Positions 1 to 64,000 of a DNA stretch of 64,000 bases are shown here, in pieces (the stretch's first letter is position 1; each line of letters starts with the position of its first letter). Source of the stretch: a virus. Lineage: Duplodnaviria > Caudoviricetes. The DNA is taken from positions 10,614-74,613 of IMG/VR virus record IMGVR_UViG_3300033066_001102. One strand, written 5' to 3'. A program made the position numbers and the translations under genes. Under the pieces are notes generated by a model. The model had not been told where the DNA came from, searched no databases, and saw only the letters and a list, made by a program, of their open reading frames with translations.

Positions 1-3
1 GTA

Positions 4-549: not shown

Positions 550-569
550 TTTTAATTCTAAATTTACTA

Positions 570-4208: not shown

Positions 4209-4221
4209 GGCAGGTTGTTTT

Positions 4222-4821: not shown

Positions 4822-4852
4822 GAGTGTACATTTATTAAAGTGAAAAAATAAA

Positions 4853-5692: not shown

Positions 5693-5729
5693 GATTACTT
5701 TGTTTTTTTTCGCTGATTAGATAAAACGA

Positions 5730-6572: not shown

Positions 6573-6620
6573 CGTGCGGTAAATTTAAGATTAAAAATAA
6601 CTACCCCAAATTAGGTATGT

Positions 6621-6896: not shown

Positions 6897-7996
6897 ATAG
6901 ATAATATTTGAAAAAAGTTTCCAGATGATCCTGCACCAGGCGCCGTAAAAATCCACCCGCTATTCCCGCTTACGTTTGTGCTGTTAGCGCCTGCGTAAAA
7001 TGTGGCGCCTCCGCTTGCGGTACTATCCTTTATGCTCATATAATCAACGCTAACCGTCCCGCTTGACTTACTAATGGTTGCGGCTGATCCGGCTGATGAT
7101 GATATCAACTTTGCCAGATTGCCAACGCTGCCATTGGTTGCCAAGTTAGTAATAGTTTGTGTAACACCTGCAGTAAGTATCAACCCGGTAGCTAACCCTG
7201 CAGTGTTGATATTCAGAGTGGCAATGGTATTGGCGCCACTAAGCACATTGGCATCACCGGAAACAGTCAGCGTAGAAATGGTATTGGCGCCACTAAGCGT
7301 AATCGACGCACCGGATAAAACAATCGTGTTAAAGGTAAGGCCACCGGAAGTAAAAGCCTTTGAAGTCCCGGAAGAATCGTTTACCGTTATCGTAGATCCG
7401 GTAGCAGTAAAGGTCAAATTTGTTATGGTCCCAAAATTCCAAACCGTCCCGGTAGAAGTCAGGGTAAGGCTGCAATTTGTCATTGTCAGCGTCCTGGTAT
7501 TGGAGTTGTTACTTACAAAGTTGCCGGTTGTAATAGTCCTGCCAGTAAGATCGAGGGATCCGTTGGTAAGTGTAAACCCCTTTCCTGTTACCATTGATAC
7601 ATTATCCTGCAGCACCCATGTCCCACCAACACCGTTAAACGTCCAGTTGCTTCCAATAGACAACCCGGCCGTTGTTATATTATGGCTTCCGCTTGTTGCA
7701 GTAAAAGTGATCGTGCCGGTATAGCTTAGTGTCATTCCGGAAACAAGCAACAACCCACCTGCGATGCTGATTGCCTGAGTGCCTGCTATCGTTCCGGTAA
7801 ATCCTGTAAGGATCAGATTCCTGCAGGTAAAGGAGTTCGTGAGCGTAACGGTAACGGCCCCGCTTGCAGCATCAATGTAAACGTCATCGGAAGCAGTAGG
7901 GATAGGCTGCCCACCGGCGCCTCCGGACGTTAACGCCCATTTGGTTCCTGCTGTTGCGTTTGCTGATGCCGTTCCTCCTACCCAATACAGATCCAT
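6893..7996 (-). CDS. Gly/Thr/Ser-rich beta-helical tail-associated protein
   Basis: LYWVGGT..W, beta-helix repeats (LSGANTISTLTV x2); likely start MDLYW at 7996. Confidence 0.7.
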   Translation of the reverse strand: MDLYWVGGTASANATAGTKWALTSGGAGGQPIPTASDDVYIDAASGAVTVTLTNSFTCRNLILTGFTGTIAGTQAISIAGGLLLVSGMTLSYTGTITFTATSGSHNITTAGLSIGSNWTFNGVGGTWVLQDNVSMVTGKGFTLTNGSLDLTGRTITTGNFVSNNSNTRTLTMTNCSLTLTSTGTVWNFGTITNLTFTATGSTITVNDSSGTSKAFTSGGLTFNTIVLSGASITLSGANTISTLTVSGDANVLSGANTIATLNINTAGLATGLILTAGVTQTITNLATNGSVGNLAKLISSSAGSAATISKSSGTVSVDYMSIKDSTASGGATFYAGANSTNVSGNSGWIFTAPGAGSSGNFFQILSI

Positions 7997-8000
7997 AAAA

Positions 8001-9920: not shown

Positions 9921-12900
9921 TATGCAGGGGGATTAATGTTTACAATAATTGCGGACGCCGTAGTAACTCCTGTAAGCTTGATCTTCATAATGCTATGCTC
10001 CGGAACATCTATTAATGAACTGGAAGTTGACAGTTCGCTGATAGGCACGATATCAACCGGAGTAAGACCGGGCACCGGAAGCGGGAAGTATTTGAAGTAA
10101 TCGTATGCATGGCACGTTCCTATTGAACCGTAAAGCTCTTCGCTGTAACACCCTGTTACATCCACATCCGTTAACAAAGTGGTGCCATCCACGACAATAC
10201 TCTGGATGACTTCCGCATCATTGATATTGTACAGCCATAAGTAAACCACGGAATCAACCTCAAATGCTACAATATCAAACTGTAGTGGCTGGTTCGTGAT
10301 CGTCACCGGAATGAATACCGGGTAGCCGCCTGAATACGTGCTTAATGGTTTAAGCAGTTCGTATGCTACCCCTTGTATTCGCTTCACGAATGTATCCGCG
10401 CCAGATCCGTTTATGTATGACGGATCGATCGAGAACAATGCATCTTGCGCAGTAATTACCGAAACGGCACTTTCGTTCATTAAGAATACAGCGCTTGAGA
10501 TAAAATTATCGTGAGTATGATTGAACTTGAAAAACTCAATTATCTCATTTATGATCATAAGCCCATGTAGCATGGTGTTCGCTACATATCCGGTACGCTG
10601 CTGCGAGCATCCGTATTGCCCAACATGCATCCTTAACGGATAAGCCAGGTCATAATAAGTTTGCAGCCTGGGCAGGACTTCCCCGTATAAACTGTTATTG
10701 CCATCAAACAGATTATCCCTTGTATAATCCAGAGCAAGGGCAAAGTAAACATCAATATCCGTAGAGTTGTTTGCCCCGGGAGAGTTGCCGCCATTATCCC
10801 CTAACCAGAAGTATTGACTGAATTCCTCGATACCCTGAGAGATTGCACAAGCCACAACATCAGCATTGGTCCAACCGGAACGATCCTGAATAGCCAGGTT
10901 TATCACCCTTACTGCATTTGGGAAATTGGCTTTTACATAATTATCAAACGTAACAACCAGGGCTATGTACTCCGCAGAAGTCATCGAGGCGCCAGGTGTA
11001 ACAGCGTCAGAATTGCCGGTACTCATCTCGTTACCGTATCGCACCTTGTAAGGGATACCAAGCGATTCCAGTTCTGTAAGATATTGCCCTAACTCGGTTG
11101 TGGTACCGTGCGATAGGTTTGCCGTAAACACGATCATGCTCATGTTTGCAACCGAATTACAATACGTCTTAAACCGGGCCCAGAAGTCCTGCCCGGAATC
11201 GTTGTACGTTTCGTGCAGGTCTACGGCATCATCAACGCTTCCGGTATAATGATAGATCTCATTTGTATTTGCCCGCATCCCTACATTTGATACCGTTGTC
11301 AATGGCTCGTTGTTTGGCACAAGGTCAAACCCGCCACGCTTGCTTACATAGTGTATCCACCGATCCTGAGCACCGGATGAATAGACGCCATGCTTAAATC
11401 CAATTTCATTTACAAAGTCCGTGAAATCGGTTTTGCTGTATAAATCAGTATAATATAAGCCCACGTTATCCAATGCAACCCCAAACAACGGCAGCATGTT
11501 ATCAATTTCATCAGCAGTGTCCGGAGTGGTGAATACCACGGACAAGCTGTATGGGCGAAGCCTTAAGGTGTCCTGCTCAACATATGTAACGCCTTCGGTG
11601 ACAGGATCCGTCGCATTCGTGCTGTAGTTTTGTGTTACAGACAGATTACTTGCCGGCACCGATACGCCATCAATAATGAGTGAATCGACAGTAATATCCT
11701 CTGCAGTAGGATTCAGCAGCAGCACCCGGATCTCGCTGCCAACCTTTATCGCGAGCGTCACCAGGTTACTGTCAACAATAGAACTATTGCTTACCATGGG
11801 CAGCAGCTTTTGATTATCCGCAAAGAAGCTACCCAACTGAACCATGAAAGGGTAATGCACTTTTGTGCTGTAATCATCATTCACATCAAACAGCTGCTTG
11901 ATATTCATGAAACACGCTCCTACCAATTTGTCATCATGATCCAGATTGTCTTTGGTAAGAGTCATGTATATTTCGGCCATGAGCAAGCCATTTGCAGCCG
12001 TGTTACGGATCGGGGAAGTAGCCTTAACAGTAACCTGGGATAAGAACACCCCCTTACCGTTTAAGTCGCTATCCTCTACGAATGCCCAAAAATCAGTCCG
12101 ATCAGCAACCTTCTGGCGAACCGCAGGATAATCCACCGCGTCGCTATCTTTAAACTGATAATACTGCCGGTTTACATCAACAATATCCAGTTCCATTAAG
12201 ACCTGATTCCAGTCGGCATCATCATTGCCTCCGTCGTCCCACAACCTGCCATCCATAGAGATAATGACATTAGGAAGTGCCGCCCGGATATATTCAAGGA
12301 TAGTCGTTCCTGCATCTACTTCGGTCAACAGCCGATAAAGAATTTGCGCCTTCGTTGTTTCTGCCCCTCCGGTATTCACAAACAGATCCTCCCATGCGCC
12401 GGTCTTTAACTCCATACCCAACTCCAAGATATCAAGACTGGCATTTGTAGCATTAATTCCGGCAACGATTAGATCAACCTCGTCCTTTACGGCCTGATAG
12501 TCCACCGAAGCCCATACGATTGTATCATTGCTGAATGGAATTAGCGGAGAGGCCAGGTTCAATCCAACTACAGCCCTGGTTATTTCCAACTGGTCGATGA
12601 AGTACTGGAACTCGGTAAAGAACTTGCGGCCATAAGGATTGCCGCCATTATACAGGTCACCGCCTTGTACCGTTGTATAGTCAAGCCCCCGATCGGTAGC
12701 ATCCGATTCGATACTTCCCCATCCATCCGTTCCTGCAGGATGCCACCAGTCGATGACAGCGCCGGTCGGGAAAGCCAAGAAACTGAAATTAAGCTCCTTC
12801 ACCGCATTAATCAGATCGGTATTTCCTACAAGTGAATTTTCAATAGAAAGGTCAAACCATGTGGATCCCCAAATATTAAGCATATCAACAGGCGATTCCG

Positions 12901-26200: not shown

Positions 26201-29200
26201 TTTCCTTGCATCCTCTTTACGCTTATCCCGCTTTTCACGCGCTTGCTTTGTGATTGTGTCATAAATACTTTGTTTCTCCCTACGTTGGCGCATTTGCTCT
26301 TCATGCGCACTTTTTCCAGCCTGCCTTTCGCGTTCATATTGGCGTTGCCTTTCTTGCTGTCGCCGCTGCCAGTCACGCATTTGTTCTTCTTGATCCCTGC
26401 GGAAGTCTTCATAGGTATTCCGCTGTTGATGACCAGATCTTCCAGAACCCTGATCACCTGGTCTGCGAGCATGACTATCACTGATAATACCCTTGTTATA
26501 GTTGTCATTCACTACATTGAGGTACTTCATCAGCTCTAACGCATCCGCACCCTTGTCTGGATGATATTTGAATGATAACTTTCGATATGCTTTACGTGCT
26601 TCTTCTTTATTGGCAACTGTCCGATAGACCTTTAGGATAAATGCTTTTGCCTCGTTTTGATCAACATTATCGAATAAATCAATGTCTTCCAATATGCCGA
26701 AAAAGAAATCGCGATCCGAATTTAGAATTGCTTTGGCTTCGTCTTGAGTAACTGTTTTGTAATTGATGCCAAATCGTTTCTTAAGCGCTTCACCGATAGT
26801 ATTTAGTTCCTGATCGTTGAGTTTCCTATTATTTAATTTTGTTTGCCTGCGATCAATAGCATTCTTAATTCTTGTTGCAGGATGAGTTTCACGATTGCCT
26901 TTTGGAACCTCATTCCTTGATATGATATTCTTTAGACGGTCCAGTTCTGTTTGACCTGCAGCTTCAATAATATTATCAGGCAATGATTCAATATGAGAGT
27001 ATAAATCTTTGTGCCTTTTAGCTGATGGTGCACGTTTATCCAGTTCCAGATATGCATCATTCCATTGCTTCAAATTAGACCATGTAACCCTCGTTCCAGG
27101 AGTAGTAATTTCTTCAGGTCCAGTAGCAACAGTTTCGGTACGACCGTCAATGATCCGCATTTTCTCAGCGGCCATCCAGTTCATCATAATCTTTTGTCCT
27201 GCAGCATTTGCTTCTTCCCATGTAGCATAACGGGCATCGTTACCATTCCATTTACCACCTTCACCTTTAATAATCAGTTCAACACGATATGGGAAATTCT
27301 CTACATCTTTTTTCTTATCAACCGGTTCAGGCGCTTCTTCTTTCTCGCTTGCAATCACTTCTGAAAACTTCTTTGGTGTCCAATACAGATCCAATTCAAC
27401 CGGCAGTGACTTCATTTCCTCAATGCTGATGTAGCCCCATTCGCCGTCTTCGCCAAACTTCGCATAACCGAACGCCTGGTACTGTTTCCCCTTATCTTTC
27501 GGAGCATCATCCTTGGATCCCTTGTCTTTCTCGATGATGTACCAATCCCTGCCGCCAATGAAGTAGTGCAGGTACACTATTTTGTCGCCTTCTTCCTGGT
27601 CATCCGTTTCATAAGTGGCTGGCATTCCTTCAATCAACTTGTCCAGTTTGTCCAGCATGTCGATGAAGAACTCGGATTCCTCACTCTTTAATTCGTTTTG
27701 CTGCAGCGATTCCAGTTCCGCCTCCGGCATGAAGTTGACGATATTCGGAGTGATAACGGACTTAGCAGTTTTTTCAACCTTAGAGGGTTTTACTTCTTCC
27801 TCTTTGGCTTCGGTGGTATTGTCCGTACTCGTTTTTTTATCGGTGGTAGGGGTAAATTCTTTTTTGAATAATTCAACCTGATCTTTGGGAACTTCAATGG
27901 CTACTTTTTTAAGTCCTAATTCTTTTGCTGCAAGGATTCTATGCCTGCCATCTTCAAATCCTAATTTGCCATCATTAATACTTGCAACGCTTGGTTCAAA
28001 TGTAACTTTCGTTTCAGTCCGTTCACCTGTTTTGGGATGAACCCATCTATTATCATTCAGATAATTACTAATGAACTCTTTTGCTTTTTGAACCCTATTC
28101 CCAATCTGATTCTTTTTATTTGTTACATCATAATCCGGTTGATCTTTTGACTGCCGTTCAAGTATCTTGTCAGTATCCACAAAAACAATTTCATTCTTCT
28201 TTGGATTCCTTAATGTGTATTCAACGTCCTCAAGTGCATTAGGATTTTTGCCTACGTCTTCTTTTGGCACTCCGAACTCTTCAAGTTGTTGTCTTGTGTC
28301 AGTAGGTTGACTTTCTGGAACTACTTCTTCTTGTGAAAGTCCTTCTGCGATATTGGTTGCTTCGACATTTCTTTCACCGCCTGCAATCGCTCCTCGTTTT
28401 TCTTCTGGTGATTGAGAGGCGGCTTTGCCCCGTATTCCATTTTTATTTGCCAATTCTTCTATTTTAGCAAGCAAATCCGTTTCAGATAAATTTAAAATAT
28501 CTTCTTTATCTAAAGGGAAACTTTGATCTGCTATATCTATGTATTTTTCACCTGTATGAATATTCGTTCTTTCTGTTTCTTTTCTATACGTTATATGCCA
28601 ATTTCCTCCTACACTAAATAATTTTTCAAAAACATAGTCCCCTATTTTATTAGGTAATACCTTTCTTAAAATATTAGATGTTTTCTTTACATCTTCTTGT
28701 ATATTTTTTTCGTCAAATTTTTCAAATGCTTTTTGTTTTTTAACATCTACATCATTCAATGCACTTTCCCCTTTGGCTTCTGGCTGTTGTATTTCATTTT
28801 TAGCAACGCCAGCGCCACCTTGCTGCTCTTGTCCAATTTCGTCTTTGGTTTCTTCGGTTGTGATTTCATTGATCAGAGTTTTTGTTTCGTCAGTTAATGG
28901 TACTTCCAATGTAAGTTCCTCTATGGTCCCATCAGGATTATCATCAAGCCATGCAAGAATATCTTCTTGCTCAGAGGAAGGTATCTGTGATGCTTTTTTG
29001 CGATATTCTGCGAATGTTTTTAAAAGAGTTCTGTCAAATTGTATCCCTGTAATGGCCGTAAATTGCTGCCCTAATCTTGATGTTAACGGCCCAAATAATT
29101 TAGATTCATCCAGACCATTAGGATACTTAAGCATAAAGTCCCACAAATCCTTCTCTGTAAATCGATCAAAATCTTCTCTAAGATTGAGATCTGAAACAGA

Positions 29201-32200
29201 TTGATCTATACCCTTTGCATTTTTACCGTAGTAATTATCTCTAAGCGCCTGCCAATTAGGTAAATCACTAAGATCATATCCGAAATATCTCCTTACATCT
29301 TCATTGTTAAAACTGATGTGCGCATCAGCCATCCGTCGCTCTTTATCACTAAATTGCAACGACTCACCTTCCATTTGATCCATGTAGGCCGCACCAATCA
29401 ATATTTCTAATGGATTCTCGCCTTCAGATCCGAGTTTGTGATAATAGTCTTCTTCATTATTGATATCCGACACATCAAGCTCAGGAGTACTTGAATATTT
29501 TTCAACCAGGTAACCAGAAACAACTTTATCATAAATAGGACTTCTTCGATCAACTTCTTTACCCGAAACCGAATTTTCAAATATTATAGAGCCACTTTTC
29601 GATTTCTTAACCTCATATTCAATGTTCTCTACCGATATAAATTCCTTGTTACCGATAACAGATAATTTCGCCTTGTTTTTATTTTCAGTACCTGGAGTGA
29701 TCTCTTTTTTGATATCTTCAAGTTGATCAATCAATTCCTCATCAAGATCATCTTCAGGGAAAGGAATATCTACAGGAATATGTTCTACCGGATCACCAAT
29801 GTCAATTCCAATAACAGGTGGTACTACGTCGATAATAGGAACAGTTTGACTCTCTGGCATCCCCGCTGCTACATTAGTCTGCTCCTTTATCTTTCTATTC
29901 AATTCAGCCAGTAGTGCTGAAGCATGCGCCGCAGGAATATTTTTATACCGGTTCACTTTCATTGCTACTTCTGCCTCATTCATGCCAGGAGCACCCACCT
30001 TCTTAGCCGTTGCCCTCGTTTCAAAAGCATTTAATACTTGTTCCGCATAAATCCTTTCATCGCCCGCTGCAAATTTCCCGAGATTCTTTTTTCTGAAATC
30101 CCTGATGGACATTACGCCGGCATTGCGAAGTGCATACAGTTGTCCCAGTTTTCCGTTGCTTATATTCACAGCAACAGGATTCTGATTCACGTCGAAGTAA
30201 CGAACAGTTGATTTTGCTTTTGGCAAGAATGATCCCACTGATGCTATAGGAGCAAACGCCCCGATTCCCAATGCAGTAGTAGCAAAAAACTCTTTATTAT
30301 ACCCTTCAAAAACGCCCTGATCACCGGTAATTATATTCGATAACGGACTATTTACCCATTCTTCAAATTGCTCACCAATGATATTTGAATATGAAAGGTT
30401 ATGCTTAAATATCTCTTGTATTGCTTCATTCGGCTCAATACCATGACGCGCTAACCAGTAACCAACAGTCAGTCGCTTCATAAAATCAGGATCCTTCAGC
30501 ACCTTTTTTGAGAAAGCATTACCCATCCATGGAACAACCTCTCCAATTCGCTCAGTAGCAAATTCAGCCCATGAAGTACCAAATGCTTTTGCAAAAGCAG
30601 TAGAAAAGTCTTCTCCTCTGCCCTTTTGCGATTCATCCAATTGGTATAACAATTTAGTTCCGTCAGGCGAAAAAGCCATTACCATTCCCGGTTGCATGCG
30701 CTCCAGTGTGGTGTTAATATACATTTGAGGATTTGCAGCCGTTTGCGCTATTCCACCAATAAGGCTTGCCAATACCTCGCTTGAACGTCCCGCTGCCGAT
30801 TCTGCAAATATTACCGAACCGGCCGATTTAGCACTTTGTGCGGCGCTGATTTTTCCAAGATCAAGAATGCTTGTACCCGCTTTTGCAGCAATCTTTTGCA
30901 GACCTTGTCCTACTACTGTTTTTGCGGAAGAATAAACACCACTTGTAGCTGCAAATTCACCAATGTAAGGGAACATTCCGGTTGTTATTTGCCCGGCCGT
31001 GTACCAGTAATTCGGTGTAATCTGGCTTTCAATATCATTCTTTGCTGTTTCTGATTGCAACAGCAATGTTTCAATAGGAGATAAGGCCTTGCCATCGCGA
31101 ACTTTATTCTTGATACTTAACAGATTGATGTTGTCTGGAATGTCAGCAATAGATTTTATAAAAGGAATAAAATCGGTCATTCGTTTATTTATCGCACCTT
31201 GATAAAACCATCCCTGATAGTTTTCTGGCAATGTCCCAATTTTGACGAGATTTTCCCGTGTCTGCAGCAATAGTCTGTATTCCTTGTATTTATCTATGGA
31301 TTCATTAGATAGCGATCCGTTTTTTTCAATACCATCATTCCTTGCTACATTTAATTCCTTTTTTAATTCGGCTATTTGCTTATCGATTTCTGGCAATGTC
31401 TGTTCTGCATAGCTGCGAAGCGAAAAGGTAGTTAAGTTACCCTTGTCAGTGATATATGCCGGCCTTACTACATGGTAATAAAATTGCTTTCTGGCTTCAA
31501 AAATATCCTCTGGCGACACGCCTGCATTATGAAGCTCTATTGCTTTATTTTGCCAGGCATGATCCATCAACTTCTTTTTCTCTTCATAGGATTTTCCTTG
31601 AAATTCTGGACTTTCGAAAGCACTTTGCGCCTTCCGTATGTAATCGCCACCGAGAATGGTCTTAGATGGGCTGATTACGGCATCAATTTTTAAATTGAAT
31701 GCATCATCAATTTCTGTTTTAAGGGGAGTAAAATATTTACTTTGCCATAGATCAGTGATTTTGGCATTATACACCTGATTTAACTCAGCACCTTTTTGTC
31801 TAACAAAGTTTTGAGCATTGGCATTTCCTTCAGGTGATGAAAGATCAAATGTTTTAGAGGCTTCTACTTTAAGGTTTTGTATTGCCGCTTCCAATGATTT
31901 GTTTAATGCAAGATACTCTGGATCTCTTTGAAAAATAGAATCGTACTTCGACTGAATGGGACGAATAAATGAAGTGTCTGCGTACACCTTATTGAGATTA
32001 TTAAGAATCTCAGCCCGTGGCTTAAGAAAGCTGTCTATTTGTGTAGGTAATCGATATTGCTGACCATAGAAAGTATTTGATGCCGGCTGATTAATAACAT
32101 CTTTTAGGAAGTTTGTGTTTTTAGCTTTGAGTACTTCTTCATGCATCACACCTAACCCAACCAACTTATCTCTCATTCCATCGGCATCTTCTATATCACC

Positions 32201-35812: not shown

Positions 35813-38800
35813 CTATCTTATTTTAGCAATCGGTTGATAAGATTGATCGTGTGAAGTTAATGCAATCACGGCATCATCCGCATTGGTAAATATCAACTCG
35901 GTAGTCATAGTCTTACCAGATAGATGTTCACCGCTTACATTCCTGCCCATTGTTGGAGTAGTAAATAGAAGGTTTTTATACCTGGATTTGGTATCTCCTG
36001 AAATTGTCAATCCTTGTGTTTGGGTATCAGTTACCCAATTTACTGTCGTTAGCAAATCATAAGCATCTGGATTGATATTCGTCCAAGAATTATGAAAAAG
36101 TTTATTTACGTCTGGCAGCGGATTCTGAACGAACTTAATTTTTGTCTGTCTATAAGTCCCAAAGTACTTACCCCTTTCACCGACGTTATGTACATACCAG
36201 TCCAAAGTACCATCCGTTTCTACGGAAGCAGACATCATCAATCCCCTTATAGTAGTATAAACATACGGAACCCAGTCAAAGATGGAAACGAAACTTGTAA
36301 CATGCTCATCTGCACTATAACAGATTGTGGTCCTTGTTTTTTCTTGTCCGTGTGATACTGCGTAAATACTCCAATAGATTTTCTCCCTAACAGGATCATA
36401 ACCCCCTGCAATATGACGTGCCTCATCATCCACTGACACATCTTCATAACTAAGATACATCAGGTTGTCATAACTCCATTGCTTCATCTCGCAACGAACG
36501 GATAGATTCGTTATGCCATCCTGAGCAAATCGAACAAAGGACTTGCTATAGTAATCCGGATAATAAAAAGCCTTTGGCGTTTGGATGATCGCATGCGGAT
36601 GGATACACCCATATTCAGTACTGATAGGATAAGGTTTTTGCCATACTTCCGGTGTTCCAATCGAGATTGCTTGGCCTGCTTCCGTTGATAATGCAGTAAG
36701 TTCATTGATTCGTAAGCCAAACAACGCCCTTTCTTGAATTGAATACATATTGTTTCCGAAATAGCCTCGACCGGTAATCTTTCCATACTGAAGTTCCACG
36801 TTTCCACGGTTTCCTGTAAGGAACTGCCTGTAGTTATCATTAAATTCTCCCGGCACCTTAAGCAAGGAGTATAGCCATGTGCCGTCAAAATCAGTGATCG
36901 TAGGATTGATTTCCGATGGCATTGAAACATAAGCCTGGACATTGCTTTCGTGCATTACCACGGAATTTAGATAGAATTCTTCCGGTTGCCCTTCCATAAT
37001 TCCTTCCGGGAAATTTTCCGGATCTTCATAACCACACGCTTCGGCCTGACTGCGAATTCCCTTACTTGCAAAATTGCGCCCCCTTCGAAGTGCTATATTC
37101 ATACTTGATTCAAGAGGAACAATAACACCTACGCCATAGTCTTGCCAGCAATCGCCATCATGAGTACAATCACCAGGCTTTGGATATAATCGTACAAAGT
37201 CAAAAAGCCAAGGGTAACAATCCCCACCCCAAACCTCGACTCCATTCAGAATATATCTGTCACCACCGGTACGAACCGCATCAATTGTTATTGTATCCCC
37301 TCCATCCATGTATGTAATATCACTATAAACATTCGTAGGATGCTCAACAGTAATGATTGTAGTAGTTGTGCTGAAATCACCAAGGGAAAGCGAATCAAGC
37401 CATGTTGTTAATTCGGAAAGAGAGGTAACGCCAGATGATGTGTGCGGAGTACCATTTATAGTTATAGTAAATGCTGTTGATGAAAAGGAATCAGACTCAA
37501 ATGTCCATGTATAACGGTAATCTGATTTAATGTCATCGAGCACGTCCTGATTAATTGGCTGAATATGTCCAGTTCCGATGTAAACACGCTCCTCTAATGA
37601 ACTTTGATTTGGATCAGTATAATACGATGGCTGCTTTACAATGTAATTAGCAACATAATATGCCGCATAATTAGTTAAATCTGCCCCTGCAGCTGCAAAA
37701 GTAAGATTCTTAAAGTCCTTGGTTTTCAGAATCCATACCTGACGAACCCCCTGCGCATGCGGATTACCACAAGAACCATCAATATCATCCATATTGGCAT
37801 CATTGCGAAACTTAAGGTCTGTATTATCTTCATCGTACCCGGAAGAATCATACTCATTGAATAACGATACAGTTTGCATCCTCTTAACACGCGATTTTTT
37901 CCCGTATTCATAGAGCTTTTCGGATAAAGTTGCATTCCCATCTATAACAACATTCTTTGTATAGTATTTCCGATAATTTCCTTCTAATTGAGTAACGCCG
38001 GGCATATCGCTGCCTTGTTTGTATGCTTCCGGAACACCATAAAGAGCGACAAGATTCATACGGTCAACATCAAAGACAACATCATCCTGAGAGGTTCCTT
38101 CAAAAATATTTCGCTCAAACAATAAATCTGGACTATAGAACATACCAGTATAAGGACGTGAAGCAATATCCAAAGAATTGCTTTCATAACCATATATTCT
38201 ACTATCAGGCACAACCGAATAAGGATCCGTGAAATCATTGCTCGGGAGAGGAAGTGGTTGCGTCGAATTATCTTGATCCTCACTATTCTTTTCTATCACT
38301 GCAGGTAATAACAATCCCTGACATAATATTTGTGGTTTCCTTTTACAGCGAACGATTAAGACGGCACTTACTTGTAATTTCCCATCAGAATCAAATAAAA
38401 TATCAGTGATATCAAGCCCACTAATTTTTAAGCCAAGCAAGTTGATATTTTCAGTATCAGTATCGTTCATCAGCTGATACTCATTACCAGTACCATCATA
38501 TCTATCTGGGAAAGTGTAATCCTTTATGTGTTTAGCGTAAAATTTGTTACCCTTAAGATCTAATGCAACCAATGCAAAAGGATATGTTTCGCCACCCCAA
38601 TAGCTACTAAAAGCATGTTCAAATTGAACTCCTTTATAATTTAGATAGTCATTTATAACAGGAAGACTTACCGTTTTGGATGCTGATAACCGATCAATAT
38701 ACAATTGTTGCGTTAAGGTGCCTTCATCAGTAATTTCAACATCTGTAAGCGGTACACTTGTTTCAGCCTTTAATTCATCAACACTCATTTCTTTTATAAA

Positions 38801-56546: not shown

Positions 56547-56587
56547 CGATTAATAACTAACCAATTTTTTAAAAACCACAAACCACT

Positions 56588-57340
56588 ATGAACGACAACA
56601 CGAATTCCTTACATACCGAAATCCAAGATTTAGGTACACCTGTAACACAACCTGCCAAAGTGCGCAATAAATGCACATGGGCAGAAGAAGATCTGCCACA
56701 TTATAAGTTGCAGGCGAAGGGCAAACACTCGCTAACAGATCGGGAGCTATTGAGTATGATAATCGGGGACAATCCGCAAATAGCGGCACAATTGACTACG
56801 GCATTACTCGAGCATTTTAACAATAACCTTAACGCATTGTTTAAGAGTACAGCGCAAGACATTATGGGATTGGGAGTAAAGGGGATAACGCCGAGAATGG
56901 CGAGATTAATAGTAGCAGTTGGAGAGCTCGGAAGGCGCAGGACATTGGCACCAGTTAAGGAATTGCCGAAGATAACAAGCAGTAGGGAAGCATACGACAT
57001 TCTTTATCCGCACATGGTAGATATGCAAGTAGAGCAGTTTATGATATTGACATTGAACAGGGCAAACAAGGTAATCAATACTCACGTCATATCGTTGGGA
57101 GGATTAACAGGAACCGTAGCCGATCCGCGAGTAATACTACGGCATTGCTTACAGGATCAATCAACAGGGTTAATACTTGCGCACAACCACCCGAGCGGAA
57201 ATCTGAAGCCCTCAACACCGGATTTGGAATTAACGAAGAAGGTGAAATCTGGTGCCGTTTTCATGGACATATCCGTACATGACCACTTGATAATTGGAGA
57301 TGCAAATTATTTCAGCTTTGCGGATGAAGGATTGATGTAA
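56588..57340 (+). CDS. radC: RadC/JAB-domain protein
   Basis: W.EEDLP..KL..KG..SLTD.ELL, EQF.IL.LNRAN.VI, GGLTGTVADPR, ILAHNHPSG.L.PS..D..LT, VHDHLII. Confidence 0.95.
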   Translation: MNDNTNSLHTEIQDLGTPVTQPAKVRNKCTWAEEDLPHYKLQAKGKHSLTDRELLSMIIGDNPQIAAQLTTALLEHFNNNLNALFKSTAQDIMGLGVKGITPRMARLIVAVGELGRRRTLAPVKELPKITSSREAYDILYPHMVDMQVEQFMILTLNRANKVINTHVISLGGLTGTVADPRVILRHCLQDQSTGLILAHNHPSGNLKPSTPDLELTKKVKSGAVFMDISVHDHLIIGDANYFSFADEGLM

Positions 57341-57421
57341 AGAGTACCGGTGCGGGAGAGAGGATCGAATGTGTTCGTTACACACCCGCACCACACCTGA
57401 TAAAACCACAGGGATCAACAC

Positions 57422-57911
57422 TATGAAAACCACAAACAAGTTACTGCAATTCAAAGAGCAGAAGAAAAGCGATTGCTTCATTGTTACTGCAATGAGTAAT
57501 GATGATTATTGGAATGAATGCCCACTCATTTACTTCCGTAAGACAGAAGAACTCATGGAGCAGGTGAAAGCAGCCCACGATTTGCTAAAACAGGGAAAGG
57601 AGGGTAATCTTTCACGGGTTTACAGTATCAATATCTGGAATCAGGATGCGTACTACCTTCATGACAGCGAAATACAGGAAGACGATTTTACGGAAGGATG
57701 TGTGGACATCAACACCGTAAATCCGTATAATGGCAATAGCGGAAGGATCGAAGTAGAACCATTGACGGATGATGAACTTGAGCATATCGGCAATGAAATG
57801 AATACAGAAGCGGAATATATACAGGTTACGGAAAGGGGAATCTTTCGTTTTGTTGCTTACGTGAAGAACACCAACATTAAAATAAGTAGCGAGGACATTG
57901 AAATAGGTTAG
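57422..57911 (+). CDS. Acidic hypothetical early protein (likely start 57422)
   Basis: caacactATG leader; its stop codon lies inside hammerhead stem I. Confidence 0.7.
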
Positions 57912-57970
57912 CTGATGATGGATTGATTATCCGAAAGCAGGGAGTGATTGTATGCTTCCTGCTCCTAACC
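57906..57970 (+). ncRNA. Type I hammerhead ribozyme 1; predicted cleavage after C57964 (CUC)
   Basis: GGUUAG / CUGAUGA / extra U / GGAU-ugauu-AUCC / GAAA / GCAGGGAG-loop-CUUCCUGC / UC / CUAACC: full core and three paired stems. Confidence 0.92.
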
Positions 57971-57983
57971 AAAAATAACCACT

Positions 57984-58490
57984 ATGAAAACAATGGATTT
58001 TTTTTCAGCGACAAGACAATGCGGATCACGCAGGAATTATTTGAACCTCGCAGCAGCACCGAATGACGAGGAAACGATACGAGCCGGAGGAGATAAGGCG
58101 CTGGCTACTTTGGAATGTCAGGCGCTTATGGAGCAGCTGATCCGAGAACATGGCGCACCGCCCGATGGAGCCGAGTTCTTTATCATGGAGAACGCCCACG
58201 AATTTGGGACATATTACGAGCTGAACATTTTTTATGTTGAACCAGACGATGATGAAGAAGAAACCACGCCGAGCTTCGAATATGCGCTTCAATGTGAGAG
58301 CATACCGGCTAAATGGGACGAGCAATCAATCCAGGCATTGCGTAAAGCGGGGCACCCCGTTTATGCAGAAGCAAAGGAAGAAACGCCTAAATCCAATGGA
58401 ATGAGTATCAACGCAAGTTGGAGGGCAGATTTTGCAAGGGAAACAGCCAATCAAAAGCTGGGACGCGAAAATTACGCATGGGGCGATTAA
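57984..58490 (+). CDS. Uncharacterised acidic phage protein bracketed by two hammerheads
   Basis: ECQAL..QL.R, HEFGTYYE, P.KWD pattern; taaccactATG leader. Confidence 0.8.
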   Translation: MKTMDFFSATRQCGSRRNYLNLAAAPNDEETIRAGGDKALATLECQALMEQLIREHGAPPDGAEFFIMENAHEFGTYYELNIFYVEPDDDEEETTPSFEYALQCESIPAKWDEQSIQALRKAGHPVYAEAKEETPKSNGMSINASWRADFARETANQKLGRENYAWGD

Positions 58491-58555
58491 GGTTAGCTGA
58501 TGATGGGTTGAATATCCGAAAGCAGGGAGCGATTGTATGCTTCCTGCTCCTAACC
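58491..58555 (+). ncRNA. Type I hammerhead ribozyme 2; predicted cleavage after C58549 (CUC)
   Basis: Same fold as copy 1; the three differences are one A-U to G.U change in stem II and two loop changes. Confidence 0.92.
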
Positions 58556-58569
58556 AAAAATAACACACT

Positions 58570-58956
58570 ATGAAAACAAAACGGAATCCGTTGGAGGAAT
58601 TGGGAAAATTTCTCCCGGAAGTAAAAAAAGCCAAGCACATTGTTACGACAGTGCAGCATATCACAGGACGGCAGCTAATCACCAATGCTGATAAGTTACC
58701 GGAAAGCAGGAGCAGGGAAACGGCACAGCTATTTGCCCGCTACCATGCGATGCACTTCTTACGGAAGTACACAGCGTTAACGCTGGAGGAGATAGGGATT
58801 GCATTGTGTCCCTTAAAGCCATACGATCATTCCACCGTCATACATGCAATACAGACGGCACAAGATCTTATCGACACGATGGAAGGACGCAACGACTTCT
58901 ACAAGCATTATATGATGTTGCAACATTTTTTCATTGGATCCGAAACCTTAAACTAA
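58570..58956 (+). CDS. Stand-alone DnaA C-terminal (domain IV)-like HTH protein
   Basis: ARYHAMHFLRKYT.LTLEEIG...DHSTVIHA matches the DnaA signature R..AMYL.R..T..SL..IG..F..RDHTTV.HA. Confidence 0.85.
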   Translation: MKTKRNPLEELGKFLPEVKKAKHIVTTVQHITGRQLITNADKLPESRSRETAQLFARYHAMHFLRKYTALTLEEIGIALCPLKPYDHSTVIHAIQTAQDLIDTMEGRNDFYKHYMMLQHFFIGSETLN

Positions 58957-58964
58957 CCACTACC

Positions 58965-59189
58965 ATGACATTACGAAACGAAGTTACCCTAATGGGAGGA
59001 AAAGAAGTTGATTACAGGGATATTGCAATTGACGTTTTAAAGGACGGCAGTAATGACCACAAGATAAAAGCGATATGCTTAATGTGCGGGACAGCCTATA
59101 CTGTACGTCCATTTATATGCCGATGCGCTTCAAATGTGTTTTTGCGCAATGTTGAAAATGGAGAAATTGTTAACGACTCTAAATCCTAA
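58965..59189 (+). CDS. Small Zn-ribbon-like protein (likely start MTLRNE)
   Basis: CLMC...CRC; aaccactaccATG leader. Confidence 0.55.
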   Translation: MTLRNEVTLMGGKEVDYRDIAIDVLKDGSNDHKIKAICLMCGTAYTVRPFICRCASNVFLRNVENGEIVNDSKS

Positions 59190-59194
59190 CCGCC

Positions 59195-59476
59195 ATGACA
59201 AACAAAGAATTTAATAAGCACCTGAAGGAATTATCCGGGAAATCCGGATTGCTTGACAAGGCAAAGATGCGGGCAGCTGATAATGCGCTCCGTAATCAGC
59301 TAATAAACCACCTGGTGCGCCACAGGCACAACATTGTGGAGGAATTAATCAATGATGAAACCGACCGATCCTGGTTAGCTTCAATGGGCTATATGTACAG
59401 GGGCACCAACGGAAAGTTTAATTTCCTATGCACATGCGAATCATACATTCACCAACACTTAAAACCACTACCATGA
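59195..59476 (+). CDS. Hypothetical early protein
   Basis: Packed ORF in the early operon. Confidence 0.6.
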   Translation: MTNKEFNKHLKELSGKSGLLDKAKMRAADNALRNQLINHLVRHRHNIVEELINDETDRSWLASMGYMYRGTNGKFNFLCTCESYIHQHLKPLP

Positions 59477-59964
59477 AAATCACAAGCTATTACATTGACG
59501 AAAACAAAGTGCTGCATACCTACATAGGCAACAGCAAGCACGTAACAATCAGTGACGTTACTACTGATGAGCAGGCGCAACAACTGATTGACGAAGAAAA
59601 TCTACTGATCGAAGATCGTCCTGATCCGGAAGAAAAGCAGAGTGCAGTCAGTGAACCGGAAGTGAAATACACGGCAGGTAACTGGAAGGTACACAGGGTT
59701 GTAAATGACTTCGAGATTTATGATGAAGTCAGTGACAAATATCTTGCACTTGTTTATCAGTACTCCAGAAGTATTCCAATGGAGGAAGCAGAAGCAAACG
59801 CCAAAGTGATGGCAGCAGCACCGAAACTACTTGCAGCACTGGAGATGTTTATGGAAGCAACGCACAGCGAGGGGCGCAATCCTGAAAAGGTGACAATCAA
59901 TGTGCAACTGCACACCACAGCCATGCAGTTTGCAGAGGAAGCAATCAGGGAAGCAACGTATTAA
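59473..59964 (+). CDS. Hypothetical early protein (likely start MKITSY)
   Basis: C-terminal YTAGNW...EANAKVMAAAPKLLAAL motif common in phage early proteins. Confidence 0.7.
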   Translation: MKITSYYIDENKVLHTYIGNSKHVTISDVTTDEQAQQLIDEENLLIEDRPDPEEKQSAVSEPEVKYTAGNWKVHRVVNDFEIYDEVSDKYLALVYQYSRSIPMEEAEANAKVMAAAPKLLAALEMFMEATHSEGRNPEKVTINVQLHTTAMQFAEEAIREATY

Positions 59965-59994
59965 TTCACTAACCAATTTTAAAACCATAACACT

Positions 59995-60288
59995 ATGAAT
60001 CTAATCACAAGTAATGCCCGACAATTCAATTCCTCGCTAAAGAAAGCGATCACGGAAGCGATAGGGCAAAAGGTCAAAGTAGAGATAATCAACTCATACA
60101 AATTCCCCAATTGTTGGGTGCGAGTACATCCGGAAACAACTTTCAGCAATGATTTCAGACTAAGAGTATTTGATGGATGTTTAAAAGACAGGAAGAATTT
60201 GCTTAATTCTGATGATGTTTCATACGGTAATATCCAATCGAATAGTATTTCTGCTTTAGCTATCAAATGGATGCGCATCTTTCCATAA
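59995..60288 (+). CDS. Hypothetical early protein
   Basis: Conserved leader aaccaattttaaaacc..cactATG. Confidence 0.65.
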   Translation: MNLITSNARQFNSSLKKAITEAIGQKVKVEIINSYKFPNCWVRVHPETTFSNDFRLRVFDGCLKDRKNLLNSDDVSYGNIQSNSISALAIKWMRIFP

Positions 60289-60343
60289 TTGTTTGTAATT
60301 TTAATTTTTAATTTTAAACCAATTTTAAAAACCATTTACCACT

Positions 60344-60565
60344 ATGCCACAGTACAAAAATGATCCGAGAGTAACTTACTCCAAGTTCAACAGCACTTGC
60401 GCGAAGTGCGGAAAGACCATCCGTAAAGGTGAAGAAATCGTTTACTGGCCCGCCAAGAAAGAAGCGATGCACCACGCTTGCGGGCAGCCTGACTTGCAGT
60501 CATTCTATGAATCCGCACAGGACGAGGACAACTACAATGCGCAGTTTCCTGGACGGAGTTATTAA
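60344..60565 (+). CDS. Small Zn-finger-like early protein
   Basis: SKFNSTCAKCG..I.KGE.I.Y.P...HHAC. Confidence 0.7.
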   Translation: MPQYKNDPRVTYSKFNSTCAKCGKTIRKGEEIVYWPAKKEAMHHACGQPDLQSFYESAQDEDNYNAQFPGRSY

Positions 60566-61266: not shown

Positions 61267-61515
61267 ATGAAAACAAAAGCATCAACTAAGCAGAAAAACG
61301 CCAATAGTGCCAAGAGTGTTATTGGCGGCAGTTTGCATCGGCGAAGAGCCGAAGCAACATACAGGGAAATAAAAACCGAATGGGATATACAGAAATGCTT
61401 TGAGCAATTAAGATTTAATAAAGACTACCATTTAGGGATGGGTGACATACGATTAACAATAGGTATGCAAGAAGAAATATGCGAATTAGTGGAGCGTTTC
61501 TACCGTTGCTGCTAA
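61267..61515 (+). CDS. Hypothetical cassette-like ORF
   Basis: Reads through a GTT-type boundary hairpin; stops within TAAC. Confidence 0.5.
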   Translation: MKTKASTKQKNANSAKSVIGGSLHRRRAEATYREIKTEWDIQKCFEQLRFNKDYHLGMGDIRLTIGMQEEICELVERFYRCC

Positions 61516-61582
61516 CGGTGGCAATAAGAAACGAAAGGGATTTGAAGTCGCTTTCTTATCTAATAATTAAAACAATAGTAAA

Positions 61583-61804
61583 ATGGTAGAAAGAAAATTA
61601 AAACTTTACAAACTTGTAAATGGAATAGGAATTTATTGGGTAATTGCTAAAGACCCAACTGATGCGGAAAACAAATTAACCGCCTTACTCGACAAAGCTG
61701 ATTATGGCTTTTCAAAAGATCGCGTAGTAAAAGAAATACATCTAATTGCAGATGAAATTTATGAAGGTTCGTTTGGGATAAGCAATAAGTTTCTGGTTGT
61801 TTAG
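61583..61804 (+). CDS. Hypothetical cassette-like ORF
   Basis: Flanked by two hairpin elements. Confidence 0.65.
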   Translation: MVERKLKLYKLVNGIGIYWVIAKDPTDAENKLTALLDKADYGFSKDRVVKEIHLIADEIYEGSFGISNKFLVV

Positions 61805-61807
61805 CAC

Positions 61808-61892
61808 TTATGGCTATGTGTCAGGGAAAATTTTACAAATGAAAAAAAATAAACAAGCCAAAATTTTACTTGCATCATAGCCGATGTTAAGT
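61808..61892 (+). repeat. attC-like hairpin (degenerate)
   Basis: ggctatg..aaaatttt / aaaatttt..catagcc arms followed by GTTAAGT. Confidence 0.55.
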
Positions 61893-61916
61893 TTATTTTT
61901 TGGCAACCTAAACGAA

Positions 61917-62294
61917 ATGATTATGAATTACTATGAAGTAGGTTACTGGAGTTACGAAGAAGCACCAAGCTACACTTTAACTCACGAAAAAGAATATACA
62001 CAGGAGCAGTTTGACGAACTTGTGGCTGACTGTATGGCTAAGGTTTTTAAAGCCAAAGGAGAAGAATACGGAGAGAGCATACAATACTTGCTTGACAAAA
62101 CAATAAAGATGCTTGAAGATGATTTTGGCTTTAAACAACCGATTGTAAAAGCAAGATTTTCTCCATTCGGATGGGCAGATATAAATAATGCGAATGATTG
62201 GAAGACACAAGTTGAAGATGCTCAATTAGAATTGGTGCGCTCAAAGGTTGCCAATGGTTCTCGGCTTTGCGATGGCCGCCAAAGAGTATTTTAA
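61917..62294 (+). CDS. Hypothetical acidic cassette-like ORF
   Basis: Bounded by ttggcaacct (61900) and aggttgccaa (62245). Confidence 0.65.
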   Translation: MIMNYYEVGYWSYEEAPSYTLTHEKEYTQEQFDELVADCMAKVFKAKGEEYGESIQYLLDKTIKMLEDDFGFKQPIVKARFSPFGWADINNANDWKTQVEDAQLELVRSKVANGSRLCDGRQRVF

Positions 62295-62348
62295 TTATTA
62301 ACCGAGAATTGTCAGGCGGCTATTGCAAAACCGTTGTTAGGTGCAGTG
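62245..62348 (+). repeat. attC-like hairpin
   Basis: ggctttgcgatggccgcc pairs with ggcggctattgcaaaacc; ends in GTTAGGT. Confidence 0.7.
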
Positions 62349-62369
62349 ATTCTCACAATTTCAAATAAA

Positions 62370-62588
62370 ATGGAAATACTTATCAAACATTATGGAAATT
62401 CAAGGACAACTCCTTCAAAAATTATTGAGTTGACTTGTAAAGATTACGACACTCAATTTACAGTTGACGTTACAAACTTAAAAGGTTTGGTTGATGTCAA
62501 TTTAATTGAAAACTTACGTCAAGTTGCTGATGAATTGGAAGAACAAAATAGACTTGTAAAGGAGTTGTCCGAAGGTGTGGTGTCATAG
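62370..62588 (+). CDS. Hypothetical cassette-like ORF (likely start MEILIK)
   Basis: Bounded by gttaggtgcagtg and cattgcacctaac. Confidence 0.65.
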   Translation: MEILIKHYGNSRTTPSKIIELTCKDYDTQFTVDVTNLKGLVDVNLIENLRQVADELEEQNRLVKELSEGVVS

Positions 62589-62679
62589 CATTGCACCTAA
62601 CTGTTTCGGGCTTGGCGCAGTTGTGTGTCGGCTTGTGCGGTGGGAAAATTGCGCCAAACCCGTGTTAGTAGCTGGCGGG
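62589..62679 (+). repeat. attC-like hairpin (best example)
   Basis: ACCTAAC ... cgggcttggcgcagtt / aattgcgccaaacccg ... GTTAGTA. Confidence 0.75.
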
Positions 62680-62729
62680 ATTTTCAGCACTAAACTTCAA
62701 TCGAAGAACTAAAGAAAAAAGTATTAAAA

Positions 62730-63833
62730 ATGTGTGATGGCAAAAATGGTTTTGAAAAAACCAAACATAACTTCCCTTACAAATGGACTTTGAAGGATGC
62801 AGTATTTACAAAAGACAAAGGAAAAGTATTTAGCTGCTTTGCTTGTGGCGGTGGTTCAACTATGGGCTATAAATTAGCTGGATTTGATGTATTAGGATGC
62901 AATGAAATTGACCCTAAAATGATTGAAGCATACAAAGTTAATCACAACCCAAAATATGCTTATTTAGAGCCTATACAGACCTTTAAATTAAGAACTGATT
63001 TACCTGATGAATTATACAAATTAGATATTTTGGATGGTTCGCCACCTTGTAGTAGCTTTTCAATGGCAGGTAATAGAGAAAAAGACTGGGGAGAAGAAAA
63101 GCAATTTAGAGAAGGACAAGCAATGCAAGTTTTAGATACGTTGTTTTTTGATTTTATTGATTTGGCAAAAGAATTACAGCCAAAAGTTGTAATAGCTGAA
63201 AATGTAAAAGGTCTATTAATTGGAGAAGCAAAGCAATATGTAATTCAGATTTATAGAGAATTTGCAAAAGCTGGGTATAATGTTCAACATTGGCTTGTAG
63301 ATGCTTCTGATGTTGGAGTGCCACAACGTAGAGAAAGAGTGTTTTTTATAGCATTAAGAAATGATTTATGTGATAAGTTTATGCACCAAAAAGATTTGTT
63401 TACCCAAGCACCTGAATTGAATTTAGATTTTAAAGAACCTAAAATTACATTTGGAGAATTTTACCAAAAAGGAGTTGATGATAGACCCGCTTCAAAAGGT
63501 AAAATGTTTGAATACTGGAATAACAGAAAACAAGGTGATGAAAGTTTTTGTGATACTATCAAAAGAACCGAAGGAGTAGAAAGATGCTTTACAAATAAAT
63601 ATCTTTATCAGGATATTGTGCCAATGACTTACACAAGCAATTCAGATGTGATGTATTTATTTGATGAATATAGAAAGCCTAATAAATTTGAAAGCTGTTG
63701 TATTGGCTCATATCCTTTAGATTATAATTTTTACAAGGTGCAATATAATTACTTAATTGGAATGAGTGTTCCACCTGTAATGACTGCACAAATAGCAAAA
63801 CAAGTATATGAACAATGGTTATCAAAAATCTAA
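62730..63833 (+). CDS. DNA (cytosine-5) methyltransferase
   Basis: FSCFACGGG (I), GSPPCSSFS (IV), ENVKG (VI), PQRRERVFF (VIII), GMSVPP (X). Confidence 0.93.
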   Translation: MCDGKNGFEKTKHNFPYKWTLKDAVFTKDKGKVFSCFACGGGSTMGYKLAGFDVLGCNEIDPKMIEAYKVNHNPKYAYLEPIQTFKLRTDLPDELYKLDILDGSPPCSSFSMAGNREKDWGEEKQFREGQAMQVLDTLFFDFIDLAKELQPKVVIAENVKGLLIGEAKQYVIQIYREFAKAGYNVQHWLVDASDVGVPQRRERVFFIALRNDLCDKFMHQKDLFTQAPELNLDFKEPKITFGEFYQKGVDDRPASKGKMFEYWNNRKQGDESFCDTIKRTEGVERCFTNKYLYQDIVPMTYTSNSDVMYLFDEYRKPNKFESCCIGSYPLDYNFYKVQYNYLIGMSVPPVMTAQIAKQVYEQWLSKI

Positions 63834-63911
63834 TGGCTGCGGAGCAGACAAAGAGGGAGGGAAAATTTTTAATACTTTTTTCTATCCTGAACTTCAATCG
63901 AAGCACGTCCG

Positions 63912-64000
63912 CCCGCTTGCTACTAACGGTAAAATATTTGCGCAGGCGGGGCTGCAATAACCCGAAATTTACGATAAGTGTTTCGCCCCGCTTGTCGCAA
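63912..64000 (+). repeat. attC-like hairpin, truncated by the window end
   Basis: TACTAAC followed by ttgcgcaggcgggg / ccccgcttgtcgcaa arms. Confidence 0.7.

Follow-up and report, generated by a model that had tools for sequence, protein, structure and literature searches.

In T4-type phages, small accessory genes of the early (hyperplastic) region are separated by repeated stem-loops and are shuffled between phages; these promoter-early stem-loops (PeSLs) include an early promoter and are believed to work via homologous recombination. Gene modules of Acinetobacter plasmids are bounded by pdif sites, i.e., sites of Xer-type tyrosine recombinases, which are 28-bp double-strand XerC-6-XerD sites arranged in inverted pairs. 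Clusters of attC sites lacking integron integrases (CALINs) were described in virulent phages, including Polaribacter phage P12002L (Qi et al., 2023; PMC9892861). One site of this phage, P12002L_attC1, was called by HattCI only and treated as a classical attC, and it gave no recombinants with the integron integrase IntI1 (PMC9892861). Here, we analyze a window of 64,000 nucleotides, the last 64 kb of the 74,613-bp IMG/VR virus record IMGVR_UViG_3300033066_001102 (linear and 95% complete according to CheckV). We conclude with good confidence that its terminal part, from 61.3 to 64.0 kb, is an array of five cassettes, orphan and partly decayed, belonging to an integron-like system that is widespread in phages and chromosomes of Bacteroidota.

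P12002L_attC1 is a member of the site family described below, letter for letter. A literature search yielded this single instance, reported as a classical attC; the family, its recombinase, and its attI-like site were not found described. A BLAST search with the best-preserved site of the window (J4) against cultured phages gave no match, and the family was found there only by means of a covariance model and by eye.

Hairpin sites and complementary cassette ends

Junction J4 (62598..62667, plus strand), between the fourth and fifth units, is composed of TAAC, TGTTT, the arms CGGGCTTGGCGCA..loop..TGCGCCAAACCCG, T, and GTTA. It reads CACCTAAC-TGTTT-stem-loop-stem-T-GTTAGTAG, which fits an attC-type layout and can be folded as an imperfect hairpin. 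It is the sole clean TAAC-hairpin-GTTA arrangement in the whole 74.6-kb genome.

A 20-nt half-site pattern (the 5′ half of the hairpin, TAACGTTTTNNGGCTTKGCG) is present in at least 120 IMG/VR contigs and in at least 120 contigs of bacteria. Nearly all bacterial matches listed belong to Bacteroidota, including isolates of Flavobacterium, Pedobacter, Chryseobacterium, Kaistella, Riemerella, and Empedobacter. Scanning these loci with the hairpin structure taken into account revealed 358 distinct sites of defined orientation, up to 11 per array, with the consensus aaTtgC..cTAAC GTTTTGgGGcTTtgcG ... cGcaAAacCgcT GTTAgc.GctGg. The spacers are 5 nt past TAAC and 1 nt ahead of GTTA, and the hairpins fall into length classes of approximately 41, 64, 80–88, and 117–120 nt. 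In an alignment of 54 sites, compensatory double changes were observed in 11 of the 12 pairs of the L stem, while one position is a conserved C.A mismatch, also present in J4. In 133 of 175 units, the gene has the same orientation as the sites. A custom covariance model, as suggested in an earlier note on this DNA made from the letters alone, finds sites of the family both in the window and in the cultured virulent phage P12002L (4–5 sites); in the phage studied here, its sites are confined to 61.8–62.7 kb. The E-values of this model are rough.

In many cassettes the start codon lies within the hairpin loop and the open reading frame (ORF) crosses the 3′ arm and the GTTA core (e.g., L010:2616–2743, L021:251–378, L020:2315–2441), so that the recombination site supplies the codons of the first ~15 residues.

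The two ends of a unit, R′ at its start and R″ at its end, are complementary to each other and do not pair across the intervening hairpin. In unit 4, GTTAGGTGCAGTG (62336–62348) pairs with CATTGCACCTAAC (62589–62601) at 12 of 13 positions, the exception being a G.T pair, and in unit 5, GTTAGTAGCTGGCGGG (62664–62679) pairs with CCCGCTTGCTACTAAC (63912–63927) at 14 of 16. By a binomial estimate, the chance of such anchored matches beyond the shared GTTAG/CTAAC core is about 4e-4 for unit 4 and 1e-4 for unit 5. The dinucleotide beside the core covaries, GT occurring with AC in one of these two units and TA with TA in the other. In unit 3, TTGGCAACCT (61901) pairs with AGGTTGCCAA (62245) at all 10 positions, but the match is displaced from GTTA because the last 14 nt of the unit end are missing. 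The corresponding match of unit 1, GTTATTGGCGGCAG (61316) with CCGTTGCTGCTAAC (61503), is weak and pairs only when G.T is allowed. All four matches had been listed in the earlier note and are indeed present, with R″ matching the R′ of its own cassette in units 3, 4, and 5.

The same holds for the family. Pairing was assessed at 12 positions beyond the invariant core in 175 units bounded by two sites. The start and the end of the same unit form on average 7.2 Watson-Crick pairs per 12, compared to 3.9 for the two flanks of one hairpin and 3.8 for random pairs; at least nine pairs (G.T counted) are formed in 59, 9, and 6% of cases, respectively. Of the classical signature that had been invoked for this region (R″ RYYYAAC matching R′ GTTRRRY), the own-end pairing stands, whereas only YTAAC/GTTAR of the 7-mers is conserved and the paired ends extend over 12–24 nt.

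Break-points and the linked recombinase

Comparison of all oriented loci (approximately 240 family loci) by megablast demonstrated that the ends of shared homology peak at TAAC. Of 93 right ends, 24 lie at TAAC+0 or +1, and of 113 left ends, 32 coincide with the first base of TAAC, GTTA forming a minor peak only; these counts are uncorrected for contig relatedness. Differences in gene content among relatives thus break at the AAC/GTT boundaries, as the earlier note had expected of a cassette system. The commonest exchangeable unit in gene orientation consists of the hairpin, GTTA.., the gene, and ..TAAC; on the other strand, this is a classical cassette with the crossover at G|TT. Since the main crossover is at the TAAC side, the hairpin mostly travels with the downstream gene, a mirror image of the textbook cassette.

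The methyltransferase cassette (unit 5) provides the most detailed example. The gene and its right flank are conserved to ...CCCGCTTGCTACTAAC, and homology ends in ...GCTACTAAC, exactly at CTAAC, beyond which 10 unrelated sequences were observed in 10 contig contexts. The hairpin 5′ of the unit is of one type in five contigs, of two further types elsewhere, and of yet another type in the window. With intact ends and 84–92% identity to copies elsewhere, this unit looks to be the most recent in the window. A 20-nt motif flanking the gene on both sides is present in 19 IMG/VR contigs. Two contigs (L004, L005; L004:1689–1756) have the same pair of ends and one motif copy but no gene, i.e., an empty cassette. 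Homologues of the methyltransferase in Flavobacterium phages (72% nucleotide identity) have no flanking sites.

The methyltransferase cargo is bracketed twice, by two direct copies of a small hairpin motif, AACTTCAATCGAAG, and by a 19-nt inverted repeat, AGAAAAAAGTATTAAAAAT (62681–62731, 63865–63906). The small hairpin motif is also found behind other cassette starts (L008, L016). The empty cassettes suggest a second level of cargo loss or swap via recombination between motif copies.

Units 3 and 4 were also found in other contexts. In the contig L265, 94% identity extends over exactly 61812–62254, from the J2 hairpin through GGTTGCCAA, and the neighbours differ on both sides. The L265 copy has full 24-nt ends that are complementary at 22 of 24 positions; the 14 nt missing from the end in the window include the TAAC stop codon, and therefore gene 3 reads on into junction J3. 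Compared to its 113-aa homologue P0002, gene 3 has a 10-codon C-terminal extension (62245–62294). A protein encoded in L276 is 96% identical to that of unit 4 and is flanked by the same ends, but by different hairpins on both sides; hence, break-points at the GTTA side exist too. The J3 hairpin of the window is 83–91% identical to hairpins in more than 10 contigs (including L062, L104, L130, L140, and L025), in several of which a different cassette start lies behind it.

The ORFs of the approximately 240 family loci were clustered to find recurrent proteins. The three largest clusters are N6/N4 methyltransferases (57 loci), C5 methyltransferases (23 loci), and a tyrosine recombinase of ~275 aa (16 loci), one gene of which is located at L280:3600–4430. 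The best NCBIfam matches of this recombinase are XerA/integron integrase, IntI (TIGR02249), XerC, and XerD, all below cut-offs. The TIGR02249 match comes in two stretches that skip positions 181–235, i.e., the IntI-specific insertion is absent. In several phage contigs the recombinase ATG lies 45–65 nt past the ..TAAC of the last cassette on the same strand, with no hairpin between them.

The linkage was tested on 80 loci fetched by the recombinase protein profile alone. These contain 143 sites co-oriented with the recombinase and two in the opposite orientation. A site is located within 1.5 kb upstream of the recombinase in 36 of 62 loci and downstream in none of 78. In 72 of 78 loci, TAAC occurs at most 120 nt from the recombinase ATG and is followed by the conserved TAYTATATGTA... 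Nine loci (L285–L293) have the recombinase-proximal 70 nt in common, with four different cassette ends 5′ of TAAC. As judged from these sequences, TAAC|TAYTATATGTA is an attI-like site to which different cassettes have been joined. It had been supposed that the recombinase is encoded elsewhere; a Xer-like enzyme with an attI-like site does exist in related phages, but not in the record of the phage itself.

The orphan array of the window

The array terminates a plus-strand early operon that extends from 56.2 kb to the record end. Its five AT-rich units, separated by imperfect hairpins, occupy the last 2.7 kb, from ~61.3 kb on, and encode four small ORFs (82, 73, 123, and 72 aa) and a C5 DNA methyltransferase of 367 aa. 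The two compositional features reported earlier were confirmed: GC content is 0.34–0.37 vs. 0.40–0.47 upstream, and the early leader CTAACC..AAAACCAC..ACTATG, which is found ahead of the genes between 56588 and 60344, no longer occurs from 61583 on. The small ORFs match no Pfam family; among them, gene 3 alone matches a PHROGs family, weakly (phrog_34088), and none has a homologue among the ~240 family loci. Distant homologues of genes 3 and 4 reside in ordinary, tightly packed phage operons without hairpins, hence these genes are not cassette-specific.

The first unit (gene at 61267..61515, plus strand as are all features below; 82 aa, no family match) has the R″ core TTGCTGCTAAC at 61506–61516, with the stop codon TAA falling within the core, and a weak R′-like segment (61316–61329) inside the ORF. 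It is followed by the decayed junction J1 (61513..61560), which has kept TAAC, GG, and the 5′ arm GGTGGCAATAAGAAACG, similar to family variants; its 3′ arm is truncated, GTTA is missing, and the covariance model gives E=1.3 at best. The gene of unit 2 (61583..61804; 73 aa, no family match) leads into J2 (61797..61901), which contains a family hairpin at 61812–61882 (GGCTATGTGTCAG.. / ..CTTGCATCATAGCC) and GTTA at 61887 (covariance model R1, E=0.011). Its upstream TAAC core is lost (TAGCAC); in L265, the same hairpin stands behind an intact TTTGCTAAC.

Unit 3 (61887..62254) begins with the R′ GTTAAGTTTATTTTTTGGCAACCT (61887–61910), its R″ being truncated to 62245–62254, and carries the 123-aa gene 3 at 61923–62294. 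In J3 (62240..62351), the arms at 62262–62280 and 62315–62333 are followed by TT and GTTAG at 62336, and the core is CCAAT where CTAAC is expected. Unit 4 (62336..62601) contains a 72-aa gene at 62370–62588 with no family match. Beyond the intact J4, unit 5 (62664..63927) carries the methyltransferase gene at 62730–63833 (PF00145, E 9e-45), a direct repeat of motif B, CTAAACTTCAATCGAAGAAC (62690–62709 and 63887–63906), and a perfect 19-nt inverted repeat with arms at 62713–62731 and 63865–63883. The last junction, J5 (63924..64000), consists of TAAC, GG, and the hairpin TTTGCGCAGGCGGGGC..GCCCCGCTTGTCGCAA, and runs off the record end.

When the site form ..TTGCnnnTAAC/5 nt/stem-loop-stem/1 nt/GTTAnnnGC.. 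is used, J3 and J4 count as full matches and J1 and J5 as partial ones. The original description of genes separated by AAC[arm-loop-arm]GTT hairpins applies in full only to J4, while J1, J2, J3, and J5 are each incomplete.

The array probably continues from J5 at the start of the record, wrapping onto its first ~85 nt and stopping before the SNF2 helicase gene, because the end-like segment ATTGCGCCCAAC is found within these 85 nt, approximately 60 nt ahead of the helicase leader. This R″-like segment resembles the next cassette of L265. When the record end is joined to the record start, the J5 stem becomes only weakly longer, and the junction gives GTTT instead of GTTA; contiguity of the two ends is plausible.

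As the earlier note had stated for the window, no integrase is encoded there, and the search of the rest of the genome was likewise negative. The whole 74.6-kb record yielded no tyrosine recombinase (PF00589), no serine recombinase, and no Y1-HUH enzyme. An IntI with the additional domain near patch III was not encountered: the phage has no PF00589 protein, and the enzyme of the family is below the TIGR02249 cut-off. The Xer-like recombinase with TAAC|TAYTATATGTA is absent from the downstream end of the array, the record start having only the R″-like ATTGCGCCCAAC. Another complete phage of the family (50 kb, with terminal repeats) is also devoid of a tyrosine recombinase, and P12002L lacks the family enzyme as well. 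Since there is no recombinase and three of the five junctions are decayed, the array is probably an orphan, CALIN-like relic rather than an active capture system.

Other kinds of mobile elements were considered and rejected. Mechanisms of the REP/RAYT or IS200/IS605 type have no support, Y1-HUH enzymes and serine recombinases being absent. For a transposon with terminal inverted repeats (TIR) carrying the methyltransferase, the ends differ between units, with only the TAAC/GTTA core in common, and the hairpins between units are not target duplications.

Several features of the surrounding early region may be mentioned. The phage backbone adjoining the array encodes a SNF2-family helicase (record 146–1819) and a RadC-like JAB protein (L002, record 1–10700; window 56588–57340); a search of IMG/VR with the helicase detected no close relatives of the phage. 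The CTAACC leader (56557–60344) lies directly 5′ of at least eight early genes, often starting at or just past the preceding stop codon. Two near-identical intergenic repeats (57906–57970 and 58493–58557) resemble type I hammerheads (GGTTAG, CTGATGA, stem, GAAA, stem, TC, CTAACC), with the putative cut just ahead of the CTAACC leader that belongs to the following gene; none of the Rfam hammerhead models gave a match, even when a 121-nt slice was searched at E up to 10. The resemblance of their stem I, GGTTAG/CTAACC, to the cassette cores GTTAG/CTAAC may be a coincidence.

In P12002L (L264), two array ends (29166–29247 and 37200–37304) share the same ~65-nt sequence past ..TAAC (AACGGATAAAACAAGTTTTACCAAACTAAAAATGAC..). 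The published P12002L_attC2 corresponds to this stretch in reverse complement; it is not a hairpin of the family.

Proposed mechanism, rival explanations, and known systems

We propose that a cassette, in gene orientation, comprises the hairpin site, GTTAnnnGC.., the gene, and ..GCnnnTAAC, with ends complementary over 12–24 nt. In a circularized cassette or a folded single strand, the ends and the hairpin would form one long imperfect stem similar to a folded attC, a possible substrate for catalysis by the Xer-like recombinase. Exchange would occur mainly at TAAC, i.e., at G|TTA on the opposite strand, as in integrons, and in a minority of cases at GTTA. The candidate enzyme is the Xer/IntI-like tyrosine recombinase of ~275 aa that related phages encode directly downstream of the array, behind the attI-like TAAC|TAYTATATGTA. 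Because the phage studied here encodes no such enzyme, its cassettes would stem from acquisition in trans or from an ancestor; three of the junctions have decayed since then. The cargo consists of the C5 DNA methyltransferase, probably serving anti-restriction, and four small proteins, and transcription of the cassettes seems to depend on read-through from the early operon. The idea of a cassette capture system of Bacteroidota phages that uses folded single-strand sites is thus supported in its first part, but the present array is probably a relic and the folded substrate is a proposal.

Several observations weigh against this interpretation. Three of the five junctions of the window are damaged and only one is fully intact. 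An adjacent recombinase was found in only 3 of 56 arrays detected via the site pattern (~5%), and two phage genomes that are complete or nearly so, G000 and G004, lack the enzyme. Break-points also occur at the GTTA side, as exemplified by the J3 hairpin of the window, L276, and L020, and hence a single-crossover model does not explain everything. The thresholds of the junction detector were ad hoc, and a few false positives entered the alignment A1. Finally, the only family member assayed, P12002L_attC1, was not recombined by IntI1 (PMC9892861); this result speaks only against the classical enzyme.

Some of these points can be accommodated by linker-mediated homologous recombination, e.g., phage annealing of the ERF/YqaJ type, acting at short shared arms or cores with no dedicated enzyme. 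Shuffling by general recombination has been put forward as the mechanism of PeSL cassettes in T4-type phages. In the family loci, ERF and YqaJ genes are recurrent, most arrays have no adjacent recombinase, and break-points occur on both sides of the hairpins. As the sole explanation this is unlikely: it does not account for own-end complementarity through variable positions, for the linkage, strictly one-sided and co-oriented, with a recombinase that has a conserved TAAC-bounded site, or for a sharp peak of break-points at TAAC instead of their spread over the ~20-nt conserved arms. Homologous recombination could nevertheless contribute, given the two-sided break-points and the common ERF/YqaJ genes. 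The hairpins and the 5′–3′ pairing of units might also operate at the RNA level, as processing, stability, or termination signals of the early transcript, with exchange being secondary. The co-orientation of most genes with the sites, the G.T pairs that several non-Watson-Crick positions of the R stem form on the coding strand, and the two hammerhead-like repeats with the GGTTAG/CTAACC stem are in line with this possibility. Yet neither break-points precise to TAAC nor an attI-like site beside a recombinase would be predicted, and the conserved C.A mismatch of the L stem on the coding strand becomes a G.T pair when the opposite strand is read. The loops of the hairpins are large, U tracts are missing, and there is no terminator-like excess (two such sites vs. 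2.2 expected, none at a junction). In Rfam, there was no family match: nothing relevant was obtained with the whole window (gathering score) or with three of its sub-regions (E up to 10). The alternative left in the earlier note, that the hairpins act only as terminators or RNase sites, is thus not borne out by any terminator signal or Rfam match at the junctions, and we regard an RNA-level explanation as very unlikely.

It is also conceivable that the array is an ordinary integron relic, i.e., a classical CALIN whose attC sites are used by bacterial IntI. The architecture is attC-like (..YTAAC, spacer, imperfect hairpin, GTTAR..), and HattCI did call a family member of the Polaribacter phage an attC (PMC9892861). 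On the other hand, P12002L_attC1 failed the Infernal step and was the only one of six sites that IntI1 failed to recombine (PMC9892861), and complete integrons are nearly absent from Bacteroidetes (PMC9024848). Furthermore, the linked recombinase lacks the IntI insertion and falls below IntI cut-offs, the complementary ends span 12–24 nt, and the central spacer is 5 nt on one side vs. 1 nt on the other. We regard this explanation as extremely unlikely.

Extending the reading of the window as an orphan cassette array to the family as a whole, we consider it reasonably probable that Bacteroidota and their phages possess a self-contained analogue of integrons. It would have a short Xer-like recombinase without the extra domain of IntI and a mirror orientation relative to the genes, and it would mainly circulate DNA methyltransferases and small counter-defence genes among virulent phages, temperate phages, and host chromosomes, the window being an orphan outpost. 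If so, gene capture of the integron type either has had more than one origin or is considerably older and more widespread than the IntI clade. In the prevailing view, Bacteroidota have almost no integrons and phages seldom carry them. The family described here is large and has its own recombinase and attI-like site. Its most frequent cargo is DNA methyltransferase genes, and the system would be a dedicated route for the phages of a major phylum to swap anti-restriction and other accessory genes. It would lend itself naturally to comparisons of how folded DNA is recognized by tyrosine recombinases, and it is directly testable with the cultured phage P12002L and Flavobacterium genetics. The window adds a decaying orphan example, indicating that virulent phages keep such arrays without the enzyme.

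Compared to PeSLs, the sites described here show no promoter-like excess, the unit ends covary, the break-point is fixed, and there is a dedicated recombinase. Unlike pdif, they are folding hairpins of 60–130 nt with unit-specific complementary ends. The CALINs of Qi et al. resemble the family in their methyltransferase cargo, but only two sites of P12002L were reported, which were said to be divergent, and no family, end covariation, attI-like site, or Xer-like recombinase was described (PMC9892861).

The differences from integrons are multiple. The recombinase of the family is only ~275 aa long and has no IntI-specific insertion; the cassette genes point towards it, and the hairpin precedes its gene. 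The complementary ends comprise 12–24 nt and not 7, the central spacer is asymmetric (5 nt vs. 1 nt), and a fixed mismatch occupies the place where extrahelical bases would be. The hosts are Bacteroidota and their phages, and no recombination by IntI1 was seen for the one member assayed. At the same time, the family shares with integrons and CALINs the arrays of single-gene cassettes bounded by folding imperfect palindromes with ..TAAC / GTTA.. cores, the mutual complementarity of cassette ends, and the crossover at one fixed point of the core. As in integrons, a tyrosine recombinase of the Xer/IntI branch borders the array on one side and is preceded by an attI-like site that is not a hairpin, and sites are similar in sequence within arrays, resembling the VCRs of Vibrio; as with CALINs, orphan arrays without an integrase occur. 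When flipped, the layout of the family is that of an integron: integrase, attI, and cassettes with the crossover at the distal core of attC.

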